Origin: an uncultured Elusimicrobiales bacterium
Lineage (GTDB): Bacteria > Elusimicrobiota > Elusimicrobia > Elusimicrobiales > Elusimicrobiaceae
Assembly (NCBI GenBank): GCA_944325235.1
Contig: CALUZE010000001.1
Location: forward strand, 1 to 42,163
Length of the DNA stretch: 42,163 nt
Direction of reading: 5' to 3'
How positions within the stretch are numbered: the first letter of the stretch is position 1; every line of letters begins with the position of its first letter. Under the pieces are notes generated by a model. The model did not search any database, was not told the DNA's origin, and saw only the letters and a list, made by a program, of their open reading frames with translations. The position numbers were made by a program, and so were the translations under genes. Below are positions 5,754 through 42,163 of the stretch, piece after piece.

Positions 5754-5819
5754 GGGCCTTTTGTCCCCAGGAAAGAGGGTCTTTTGGCCCTGGTTGCTCA
5801 AATGACATTTTTTTATACT
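5754..5819 (+). promoter_or_regulatory. Tandem GGGYCTTTTGKCCC boxes plus -10 element (TATACT)
   Basis: Boxes at 5754-5767 and 5777-5790; -10 at 5814-5819, 7 nt before ATG 5827; same layout recurs at 41990-42032. Confidence 0.6.
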
Positions 5820-5826
5820 TTTATAT

Positions 5827-7044
5827 ATGAAAGGATTAAAACGTTTGTTCATGGGTTTTTTGTTGGTGGCTGTGCTCGGTTCGGCCCTTCCGGCTGCGCC
5901 GTTAACCCCTTTTTTGGCTCAAGTTTCCAAAAGTGTTCGTCGCTCGGCGCTCGTCCGGCAAAACCCGGGCATGAACCGAATGCGCTGGATGCGGTTTTAT
6001 TTCCCGAGCACGACGGTGGCTCAGAAGGACGGCGTGTGGGAAAAACTCTACCACGCGTTTAATTCCAAAGACGAGCAGCGCGCGGTGGCGTTTTATCTGT
6101 ATCAGATGTACATTTCCGCCGCGGCTTACGGACAAATGCCCGGCAGGTATTTGACGATTAACCAGTTGGGCGTATTGGACGGACTGGAAAAGTTGACGAC
6201 TCCGTTTGATGTACGCAATGTACAGGAATTTTACGAAGACCATAAGCCGGAAATCAAAGCCTGGCTGAAACAATTTTTTAACAAAATCGGGCAAACCTCC
6301 TACCGCACCGACGACCCGCGCAACGACGCGACCGAACGGCAATTTTTGCAAATTTTGGCCAACAGTGCAGACGCCCGCGGCCGGGCCTGTTATCTGGTGG
6401 AAACCCCGAAATGGAAATCCGCCCTGCGCAAGCAGGACGCCGCCTGGCTGGCCCAGGTGCTGCGCGGCACCGAACGGGAAATCGGCCGAAAAGTAGCCCT
6501 GTACAAAATGCCGAAAAGCAGTTTAGCCGCGCTTGATAAACGCGTCGGCAGGATGGTGGGTGGGCAGATGTCCTATTTATTCCGCCCCGCCGGGCAGGAG
6601 TGTGCCGCCCGGGCTTATTTAACGGGCAGCGGGCTCTGCCGGCAAATGAAAAGCCAACCCGCCCAGGGACGGCAGATTTCGCGCGTGTATCAGCTGCATT
6701 TAAGCCCCACCGATAACGAATTTTTAAAGCCGGCCCGCGGGAACCGGTTCCGTGCCCCGAACGGAAAAGTATATCCGAATTGGTACTATCACGAGGCTAT
6801 TTTGGTAGTGCTGCAGCACGCCAACCAATACACGCCCGTGGTGTTGGATAAATTTTTGTCCGACAAACCGATTGTGCTGGAAAAATGGCTGACCTATTTT
6901 AACCCGAGAATGACGATTATTTACGCTTCGCCTTTCCAACGCTGGGAGGAAACGGAAAATACCCTGGTTCTCCCGGACAAGACCGGCCCAAAAGGCATTT
7001 TGAAAGACGGCCGGCTGTATCGCCCGTACCCGGTGGGAAAATAA
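5827..7044 (+). CDS. Secreted protein with C-terminal protein-glutaminase-like (Cys-His-Asp) domain
   Basis: Signal peptide; ECAARAY...WYYHEAILV...VLDKFLSDKPI...W resembles protein-glutamine glutaminase motifs. Confidence 0.65.
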   Translation: MKGLKRLFMGFLLVAVLGSALPAAPLTPFLAQVSKSVRRSALVRQNPGMNRMRWMRFYFPSTTVAQKDGVWEKLYHAFNSKDEQRAVAFYLYQMYISAAAYGQMPGRYLTINQLGVLDGLEKLTTPFDVRNVQEFYEDHKPEIKAWLKQFFNKIGQTSYRTDDPRNDATERQFLQILANSADARGRACYLVETPKWKSALRKQDAAWLAQVLRGTEREIGRKVALYKMPKSSLAALDKRVGRMVGGQMSYLFRPAGQECAARAYLTGSGLCRQMKSQPAQGRQISRVYQLHLSPTDNEFLKPARGNRFRAPNGKVYPNWYYHEAILVVLQHANQYTPVVLDKFLSDKPIVLEKWLTYFNPRMTIIYASPFQRWEETENTLVLPDKTGPKGILKDGRLYRPYPVGK

Positions 7045-26343: not shown

Positions 26344-27774
26344 TTATTTTCCGTCGTTCAAGGCCAGTTCTTCGCGGATGTTTTGGATATCGCTTTGCGT
26401 TTGGTTAATCAATTTTTGCAAACGCGCTTTGCGCGCCGCCACAAAGGACCACGCCGCCATATATTCCGGCATATCGTGGGCGGCGTCCCGGGGATTTTTG
26501 GCCTGTTTGTCTACCAGCTTTTTCATGTGGTTCAGCTGATATTGGGCGTTTATCAATTGCTGCAAGCGGGTATTCAGCACATTCAGGCGGGCCTGCAACG
26601 TGCGGATGCGTTTGTTTTGCGCGTCAAACAAGAACATACCGACCGAACTTTTCCTTTTCATATCTCCGTTAGGCCAGATGACTTGTTTGTGATTGCGGAC
26701 CCAGGTTAATTTATTTAATATTTTTTGGGAAGTTTCATCTTTTAAGGAATTATTTAGCAGCCACAAGGCGGCCTTCGGTTCCAAGTACGTTGCGGCGCTC
26801 AGCACGGCTTGGGCTTTTTTGGCCGGCAGATAGACGGATGTTTGCATAAACAATTCAAAATCGTTTTCCGACCAGGAGCCGCTCTTAATCAATTGATTTA
26901 ACAGGCGTCTTTGCACGGTGTAGGCATATTGGCGCAGCGAATCGTTGGCTTGGGGCAGGGCGCCGGCGTCGTAGGAAACGGAGGGAATTTCGTTAAATAC
27001 ATACATATATAATTGGACGAAGTTATGCGACAGGACGGACGCGGCTTCGTCAATCAGCATAATAAACGTTTGTTTTTGCTCGGTGGATAGCGTTTTTTCC
27101 TGCAGGATAAAGTCGTACACGTCCGACATGGATTTTTCGGGCTGTTCGGTCAGTTTTTCCATGACTTCTTGGGAAATATAATGCGGGTCGCCGGGATTTT
27201 CGGAAAGTTTTACAGGCGTTACGCGTACCTGGTCCCAATTAGGCGTCCCCCAGGAAAAAGACGGCTTTTTGCCTTTTAAAATTTGTTCCCACATCTGGCG
27301 GGATACCGTTTGCGATTGCAGCATTTTGTTGGCGTCCCACTTCAGCATTTTGGAGGGGATATCCGGCCGCGGCTTTTCGGCAAGGATTTTGCCCAATACG
27401 CGGCTTTCGTGCTGCAAAATTTGGTTGAGTTGCTGGCGGTAAAGTTCTTTGTCTTTCAAGGGCGCGTTGACCGCGGGCTGTTGGGGCAGGGGCAGGCCCA
27501 GCATTTTTAAATGGGCGGCCGTGGTGGTAAAATCTTGGGAAACGACCCAGCCCGGGTTTTGGTATAGGGCGCGGCGGACTTCTTCTATAGCGCTGTAGCG
27601 GTTGCGCAGGGCCTGTATTTGTACGGAGGATAAACTGTTAGAGGCAAAATTTCCAGGTGCCGTAAAGGAAGATTTCAATAATTGGTTTAAGCTTTGGGTG
27701 GGCATTTGGGCCGCCGCGGTGCCGGCTGCCAATAAACAACCCAGCAACAGGCCCAAACAAGAAAAATTTTTCAT
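26344..27774 (-). CDS. Hypothetical secreted protein with C-terminal coiled coil
   Basis: 476 aa; signal peptide ending AAA-Q; AAGGAG RBS; no recognisable family. Confidence 0.78.
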   Translation of the reverse strand: MKNFSCLGLLLGCLLAAGTAAAQMPTQSLNQLLKSSFTAPGNFASNSLSSVQIQALRNRYSAIEEVRRALYQNPGWVVSQDFTTTAAHLKMLGLPLPQQPAVNAPLKDKELYRQQLNQILQHESRVLGKILAEKPRPDIPSKMLKWDANKMLQSQTVSRQMWEQILKGKKPSFSWGTPNWDQVRVTPVKLSENPGDPHYISQEVMEKLTEQPEKSMSDVYDFILQEKTLSTEQKQTFIMLIDEAASVLSHNFVQLYMYVFNEIPSVSYDAGALPQANDSLRQYAYTVQRRLLNQLIKSGSWSENDFELFMQTSVYLPAKKAQAVLSAATYLEPKAALWLLNNSLKDETSQKILNKLTWVRNHKQVIWPNGDMKRKSSVGMFLFDAQNKRIRTLQARLNVLNTRLQQLINAQYQLNHMKKLVDKQAKNPRDAAHDMPEYMAAWSFVAARKARLQKLINQTQSDIQNIREELALNDGK

Positions 27775-27833
27775 ACGCGCTCCTTATGAATGTTCCTTAA
27801 TAATAGCATAGAAAAGCTATTCCGTCCAGACAA

Positions 27834-27894
27834 GGGGCTTTGGACCCAGAACAAGGCGGGACTTTTTGCCCGCGGCGTCTAGGCCTTTTTGGCC
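27834..27894. promoter_or_regulatory. Three degenerate GGGNC-N4-GNCCC boxes in a divergent intergenic region
   Basis: GGGGCTTTGGACCC (27834), GGGACTTTTTGCCC (27858), AGGCCTTTTTGGCC (27881); period 24/23 bp. Confidence 0.5.
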
Positions 27895-27960
27895 GCAAAG
27901 CGGTTTTGCCGGCAGTTTAGATTTGATATCATATACTTACCAAGCTATTTTGGAGGAACT

Positions 27961-41915: not shown

Positions 41916-41989
41916 ATATCTTATTCTAACAAAATATCACTCGGCCGAGTAAGCCCAATTGTGCAGAGCCGCCGGGCCTACCCCCGGTT

Positions 41990-42032
41990 GGGCCTTTTGG
42001 CCCTGGTATCCTGTGCCCAAGGTCGCTATAAT
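41990..42032 (+). promoter_or_regulatory. GGGCCTTTTGGCCC box plus -10 element (TATAAT)
   Basis: Box at 41990-42003, -10 at 42027-42032, ATG at 42039; same 23-nt gap as at 5777-5819. Confidence 0.6.
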
Positions 42033-42038
42033 ACAAGT

Positions 42039-42095
42039 ATGAAAACGTGGATTACGCTGGCTTGTTGTCTGTTTAGCACCCTATCCCTTTGCTAA
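42039..42095 (+). pseudogene. Signal-peptide-only ORF (MKTWITLACCLFSTLSLC*), probable truncated secreted-protein gene
   Basis: Good promoter and a signal-peptide-like start, but a stop after 18 codons; near the window edge. Confidence 0.4.
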
Positions 42096-42163
42096 TGTGC
42101 GATAAAGAAGTAATAGAAGTGTAAAAAATTTTGCCGTTCCTATCCGGCACTTAGGGCTGTGTC

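Follow-up and report, generated by a model that had tools for sequence, protein, structure and literature searches.

The box loci of the window

The window, i.e. the whole stretch of 42,163 nucleotides that was analysed, holds three loci with a short palindromic box, GGGNC-N4-GNCCC, and each locus sits between a housekeeping gene and a divergent gene for a protein with a signal peptide. The housekeeping neighbours encode an H+-pyrophosphatase (5777 locus), a sulfatase-family protein (27834 locus) and LptF/G (41990 locus). The features are the following (no strand is assigned to the boxes):

5754..5767, secondary box GGGCCTTTTGTCCC, 23 nt upstream of the proximal box and kept in relatives
5777..5790, promoter-proximal box GGGTCTTTTGGCCC, predicted centre -42.5
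5791..5796, plus strand, predicted -35 position TGGTTG, abutting the box and 17 nt before the -10
5814..5819, plus strand, predicted -10 TATACT, without TG extension
5827..7044, plus strand, gene, predicted to be leaderless, whose 405-aa secreted product has a protein-glutaminase-like (Gln_deamidase_2) domain
26344..27774, minus strand, gene whose 476-aa product has a predicted signal peptide and matches no Pfam family
27805..27810, minus strand, predicted -10 TATGCT of the 27774 gene, which has a 30-nt leader with AAGGAG
27834..27847, promoter-proximal box, reading GGGTCCAAAGCCCC towards the 27774 gene, 23 nt from TATGCT
27858..27871, second box, degenerate, 24 nt upstream of the 27834 box
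27881..27895, third box, degenerate, with a good GGCCTA half-site, 23 nt further upstream
41965..41980, degenerate upstream box with a GGCCTA half-site, 24 nt before the 41990 box
41990..42003, promoter-proximal box GGGCCTTTTGGCCC
42027..42032, plus strand, predicted -10 TATAAT
42039..42089, plus strand, first 17 codons of an interrupted gene for a secreted trypsin-like protease (intact in genome G017, 399 aa)
42090..42163, plus strand, end of an insertion-sequence-like element, whose inverted-repeat partner lies at the end of contig C15

All six copies of the box that had been listed in the original prediction were found in place. The copy at 27834, which had been grouped with two others as degenerate, is instead an exact match (as are those at 5754, 5777 and 41990) and constitutes the main promoter-proximal box of its locus, on the minus strand; the copies at 27858 and 27881 are degenerate, with five T, and the degenerate box at 41965 had been missed. 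As claimed, the boxes at 5777 and 41990 lie exactly 23 nt from a -10 hexamer (TATACT and TATAAT, respectively), with an ATG 7 and 6 nt later.

The adjoining genes had been described as encoding unrecognised or orphan signal-peptide proteins, which holds for the 27774 gene (no Pfam family) but not for the glutaminase-like protein and the interrupted protease. The 5827 protein matches Gln_deamidase_2 with an E-value of 4e-7, and its residues C259, H322 and D341 are invariant in 9 aligned sequences; a protein search returned 9 matches, one of them the window's own protein, a single-sequence fold was too poor for use (pLDDT 35.6), and the C-terminal part gave no PDB sequence match. The 42039 frame is cut short, with a stop after 18 codons, by an element that begins at 42090 and has terminal inverted repeats, and the remainder of the protease gene is found on contig C15. 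The terminal inverted repeats of this insertion-sequence-like element are imperfect and ~24 bp long, and the same end occurs at contig ends in two genomes (G014 and G017).

At each of the three loci, box and secreted-protein gene tend to be present or absent together. The box is present in 9 of the 10 pyrophosphatase loci that have the glutaminase-like gene (it is degenerate in the tenth) and in 0/10 that lack it, in 8 of the 9 lptF loci with the protease gene (the ninth has one mismatch) and 0/5 without, and in 6/6 sulfatase loci with the orphan gene and 1/5 without, one locus being unaligned.

Box promoters in the genome and their anatomy

Within the window alone the number of strict boxes is a weak and not significant excess (4 versus 1.67 expected; at least 4 in 8 of 100 shuffles). 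In the 727 intergenic regions of the genome's assembly (G000; 1.25 Mb, 154 contigs, 84% complete), GGGNC-N4-GNCCC occurs 24 times versus 4.95 expected, with a maximum of 11 in 100 shuffles, and the relaxed form RGGNC-N4-GNCCY 43 times versus 11.8 expected (shuffle maximum 25), i.e. far above the background frequency. A spacer of 4 nt is the commonest for the relaxed box in these regions (43), the next lengths giving 30 and 28. A weight matrix without an anchor ended up in terminator hairpins and was abandoned for one in which the box is tied to the -10; seeded with 22 sites and iterated, this anchored model yields 38 promoter sites in G000, all 38 of which are intergenic by our own gene calls. 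The consensus of the palindromic 16-mer is T-RGGNC-YWWN-GRCCC-T, followed by K-G. Among 107 sites, GG-C and G-CC are near-invariant, which the search pattern partly imposes, C, T or A is the usual fourth base, and the outer pair commonly has A opposite C.

The distance between the box and the -10 is fixed, with a peak in G000 at 23 nt (21 sites) and 24 nt (8 sites), and 0-3 sites at each of the other distances between 10 and 40 nt, except for 28 (5 sites) and 29 (7 sites). The -10, of the general form TAnnnT, is the ordinary TAnAAT; the -35 position lies 17 nt before it and shares its first base with the end of the 16-mer. The 23 nt to the -10, together with the ATG that follows 6-8 nt later in the leaderless cases, place the centre of the proximal box at a predicted -42.5, a value that builds on a deduced transcription start. 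A leaderless start had been included in the signature of these promoters, but it is unspecific and general in the genome, an ATG at leaderless distance being found in 11 of 34 box targets versus 126 of 1098 genes genome-wide. Many of the ~126 apparently leaderless genes of G000 have a TG-extended -10 after a T-tract and no clear -35. The TG-extended -10 is found at 1/35 box promoters versus 48/118 other leaderless promoters, and the match to the -35 is slightly better at the box promoters (3.0 versus 2.5 of 6).

Second boxes lie 22-25 bp upstream with a peak at 24, where 13 of the 58 promoters of G000 and G119 have a full box; half-sites (36 right, 23 left) cluster at matching upstream offsets, and a few of the 58 have a third box near offset 46-48. 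These upstream copies occur without a -10 of their own. The predicted tandem arrangement is thereby upheld, with the correction that a spacing of 23-24 bp is slightly more than the two helical turns proposed.

Distribution of the box

The strict pattern of box plus -10 was recovered from all 61 genomes of the family (2-41 sites each), 11 of 12 genomes of the sister family and 15 of 22 genomes elsewhere in the class Elusimicrobia. Outside the class it occurs in 7/105 genomes with 1-2 sites each, i.e. at background, as it does in four families within the class; controls with reversed patterns gave 0-3 sites. Several families have retained the box, whereas the set of genes under it changes. What had been predicted as a lineage-specific regulon for secreted proteins does have secreted targets, but the system spans most of the class rather than one lineage.

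Predicted targets

A downstream ORF is present at 34 of the 38 sites in G000. By our own heuristic, 28 of these 34 targets have a signal peptide, versus 126 of the 450 remaining genes that stand first in an operon (odds ratio 12, p 4e-10), and the predicted association of the box with secreted-protein genes is thereby supported at the genome scale. The outcomes that would have refuted the original prediction, which concern frequency, position and association with secreted-protein genes, were thus not seen. With the same heuristic signal peptides were called in 21/24 targets of G119 and in 25/40 of G238 and G239 taken together, a set that includes part of the 44 sites of G239 and some miscalled starts. 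By a strict count, the box targets make up about a fifth (26/119) of the soluble secreted proteins of G000. Most of them are without a known family: a Pfam scan of 29 G000 targets left 16 without a match and 4 with a match above cut-off, and no match was obtained for 23/24 targets of G119 and 20/28 of G238/G239. Those that can be named comprise peptidases, an esterase, a phospholipase D-like protein, a SpoIID-like protein and signalling proteins.

Exported box targets in this genus have a basic stretch after the signal peptide. With heuristic cleavage sites in G000, the mature N-termini of box targets start with Gln in 15/26 cases versus 24/93 (p 0.004) and carry a charge of +2.6 versus +0.4 over 25 residues (p 0.0005), whereas those of G239 look Pro/Ala-rich instead; this composition may serve as a further signal for export or targeting. 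Some proteins with a signal peptide are fused to modules that are normally internal, namely at L010:4367-8269 (a weak MFS transporter match), L023:198-1583 (a receiver domain) and L276:190-2001 (an acyltransferase plus an AMP-binding domain). A conserved protein of 40-55 aa (MKTKNNLRFLLALG...) stands under the box in two genera (G000:C13:1972-2212 and L076), at L076 followed by repeated AAACCCC motifs. A stand-alone receiver-domain protein is found under the box at L286:193-606 and L294:1450-1848, 70% identical between two distant families, and could provide feedback on a phosphorelay.

One box site drives a predicted C-rich RNA of 70 nt, the hairpin of which was found in 9/121 genomes and always behind the box; it had no match in Rfam at E up to 1. 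This candidate small RNA (70-90 nt; L008:3655-3725, minus strand, i.e. G000:C109, and also L229-L237) has single-stranded parts rich in C and a hairpin whose loop (UCCCAAACCCU) is conserved, and might pair with G-rich ribosome-binding sites.

A candidate regulator in the Tad pilus operon

The search for a protein that binds the box covered ten DNA-binding families. G000 has two NarL-type regulators, one of which (G000:C21:8136-8837) lies in a Tad pilus operon, after a dCache sensor kinase and a receiver-kinase hybrid and before pilin-like genes; the same operon in G119 holds the Tad ATPase, secretin, CpaB, TadE, Flp and TadB/C, and the kinase, hybrid, regulator and pilin genes stay together in 79/80 loci of the genus. 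This candidate, the C21 regulator, consists of a receiver domain (PF00072) and a GerE helix-turn-helix (PF00196), both above cut-off, its phospho-aspartate aligns with those of DevR and VraR, and GerE is the best PDB match for its helix-turn-helix. It aligns with DevR without gaps across the recognition helix, with N167, K168, K179, T180, K182 and N183 kept, and KT[IV]KNHL is unchanged in all 43 aligned orthologue or homologue sequences. Helices of the KTVKNH type are, however, common in NarL proteins with other sites, examples being VraR and a KTVKNH protein.

Other candidates were rejected. The second NarL protein and an XRE protein are limited to the family or its surroundings (7/34 and 8/37 genomes, respectively), neither G000 nor G119 yielded a protein of the OmpR or Fis type, and TetR was not found in G238. 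No HTH_Crp_2 match over cut-off was obtained for CRP/FNR in the 84% complete G000, and its TGTGA- or TTGAT-type half-site differs from that of the box. As for LexA, its promoter has a repeated AGAACAAAAT but no full box, and there are no SOS genes among the targets; the direct repeat (L003:370-400) is a candidate SOS box of the lineage. Matches to HTH_24 and HTH_17 also occur in a box-negative genome and thus do not discriminate.

The regulator was compared with the box in 64 genomes outside the family, which are related and thus not independent. In 25 genomes with an orthologue of at least 59% identity there are 520 box sites versus 48 controls, with 18 genomes having at least 10 sites; 12 genomes with a homologue of 46-54% have 19 versus 28, and 27 genomes without a homologue 16 versus 79. 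In these related genomes, all 18 box-rich genomes (at least 10 sites) have the orthologue and none of the 39 that lack it is box-rich. The match is essentially that of one clade, and any clade-specific protein would therefore show it.

Comparison with known systems

The core of the box, GGGNC-N4-GNCCC, equals that of the DosR consensus TTSGGGACTWWAGTCCCSAA (PMC2275270), and the C21 regulator keeps the residues named as DNA contacts of DosR, in which K179, K182 and N183 read GGGACT/TGTCCC (PMC13486717). DevR boxes are centred at -42.5 and -63.5 at tgs1 (PMC3177182) and at -43.5 at hspX (PMC13486717). The promoters described here share with those of DevR/DosR of Mycobacterium tuberculosis a proximal box that is centred at -42.5 or -43.5 and adjoins a suboptimal -35, a tandem of a stronger and a weaker box, genes that diverge and a NarL-family protein, and, as at NarL/FixJ class II sites in general, inverted half-sites stand beside the -35 of a sigma70-type promoter. 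The systems differ in the box spacing (23-24 bp here versus 21) and in the half-site (T-RGG(Y/A)C versus TTSGGGACT); in addition, the DosR regulon includes the regulator's own two-component operon, at which we find no such box, the kinases here are of the dCache/HisKA type, unlike those of DevR/DosR, and the targets are mostly secreted orphans, hydrolases and a small RNA instead of hypoxia and dormancy genes. The C21 regulator is a family relative of DosR and not its orthologue, and from these sequence comparisons the box promoter likely works like a DevR-type class II activator promoter outside the DosR regulon.

The consensus of GerE of Bacillus subtilis is RWWTRGGYN2YY (PMC2695774). Its TRGGY is fitted by the left half of the box at 26/35 sites, although GerE, a 74-aa chain, has no receiver domain, unlike the C21 regulator. 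Together with sigmaK, GerE acts on spore-coat genes. Pseudomonas aeruginosa likewise has a two-component system within a Tad pilus locus, namely PprA-PprB in flp-rcp-tad, where PprB activates the tad genes themselves; in the present system, in contrast, no box was found at the Tad promoters of the four genomes scanned, and the genes predicted as targets are scattered.

Interpretation

We consider the box to be an activator operator at sigma70-type promoters of predicted secreted-protein genes, with a probability of roughly 0.9. Its position just upstream of the predicted -35, as proposed for a dimeric activator, has been borne out; the function as an activator and the identity of the protein are proposals. 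The binder is probably the NarL-family response regulator of the Tad pilus operon, which would act as a class II activator. In that case the dCache kinase and the receiver-kinase hybrid, the genes of which adjoin that of the regulator, would phosphorylate it; a dimer would, by analogy with DosR, read the two T-RGGNC half-sites via the K-T-I-K-N helix, the weaker box found 23-24 bp upstream may help binding cooperatively, and the bound dimer would recruit RNA polymerase to promoters that lack a TG-extended -10 and may depend on it. In each genome, some 25-55 secreted proteins that change rapidly, hydrolases among them, would be produced in this way, along with the 70-nt small RNA. That the -35 of the box promoters is no weaker than at other promoters counts against this reading.

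A clear minority possibility is that the same activator operator is bound by a different clade-restricted dimeric factor, from a family beyond the ten searched or missing from the assembly. Regulators embedded in a pilus operon might be expected to control their pilus locus, which counts against the C21 regulator as the binder: no promoter box was found at its own operon in 80 genus-level loci (two sites lie 1.6 and 6 kb downstream), nor upstream in 20 wider regulator loci (except for one on the opposite strand, 3.3 kb away), nor at the Tad promoters of the four genomes scanned. Furthermore, 6 of the 25 orthologue-bearing genomes (G039, G043, G046, G056, G060 and G280) have only 0-3 sites, and the kinases beside the regulator are of the HisKA type, whereas partner kinases of NarL proteins are usually HisKA_3. 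The identity of the box core with that of DosR and the conservation of the residues that read this core nevertheless speak for the C21 regulator, and well-formed sites, though few, do occur in the low-count genomes (e.g. G046:C8:119219 and G060:C44). Moreover, a genome with a homologue of only 52% (G117) has three box-like sites in a cluster, one near each of three neighbouring genes whose products are small, rich in cysteine and apparently secreted (L204:2411-6982, G117:C3).

That the box is a repressor operator, from which a signal would have to release the protein before the secreted-protein genes are expressed, seems improbable. It would fit the overlap of the last base of the 16-mer with the first of the -35, as well as the slightly above-average -35 hexamers. 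The sites of repressors, however, vary in position and usually cover -35 to +1, and a tolerance of a single base (23-24 nt) across the class is what contact with the polymerase needs; DevR activates from the same position, and the box promoters are without the TG extension.

Still less credible is the reading in which an alternative sigma factor, such as the 401-aa second sigma on C141, recognizes the proximal half, GRCCC-T, as an extended -35. The proximal half is indeed the more fixed (CCC in 94/107 sites, then T) and the second sigma is group-1/2-like, but the distal half is equally invariant and palindromic with it, the upstream copies lack a -10, the -10 is an ordinary TAnAAT, and second sigmas also occur in box-negative genomes. 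Finally, the view that no protein reads the element, and that it is a hairpin of RNA or DNA, the remnant of a terminator or a dispersed repeat, is largely refuted: GGGCC-TTTT-GGCCC can fold as a 5-bp stem and G000 has many GC-rich intergenic hairpins, but there is no covariation between the variable positions of the arms (4 and 11 pair in 45/107 sites versus 41 expected by chance), the box lies upstream of the predicted start at a fixed distance to the -10, and the flanks are unrelated between sites.

Significance

No description of the motif was found in the literature searched (subscription journals and bioRxiv supplements lay outside it), including passages of 10.1101/765248, 10.1101/2023.11.21.568195, 10.64898/2026.02.16.704739 and PMC3162934, and the same literature yielded no described regulon for Elusimicrobia, a group that is common in animal guts and groundwater. 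The activator box marks an apparent major regulon of small genomes with few regulators, in which most target proteins have no known family, and it yields a computable list of co-regulated unknown genes together with a named candidate regulator. As a switch the system is conventional, and what makes it interesting is the function of the proteins under its control. One speculative and rather doubtful scenario is that the Tad pilus and its built-in phosphorelay sense cell contact and switch on, class-wide, exported effectors such as the orphans and hydrolases. If this were true, it would point to a hidden host-attached or predatory phase in Elusimicrobia, and the box would be a ready tag for listing effectors in any genome.
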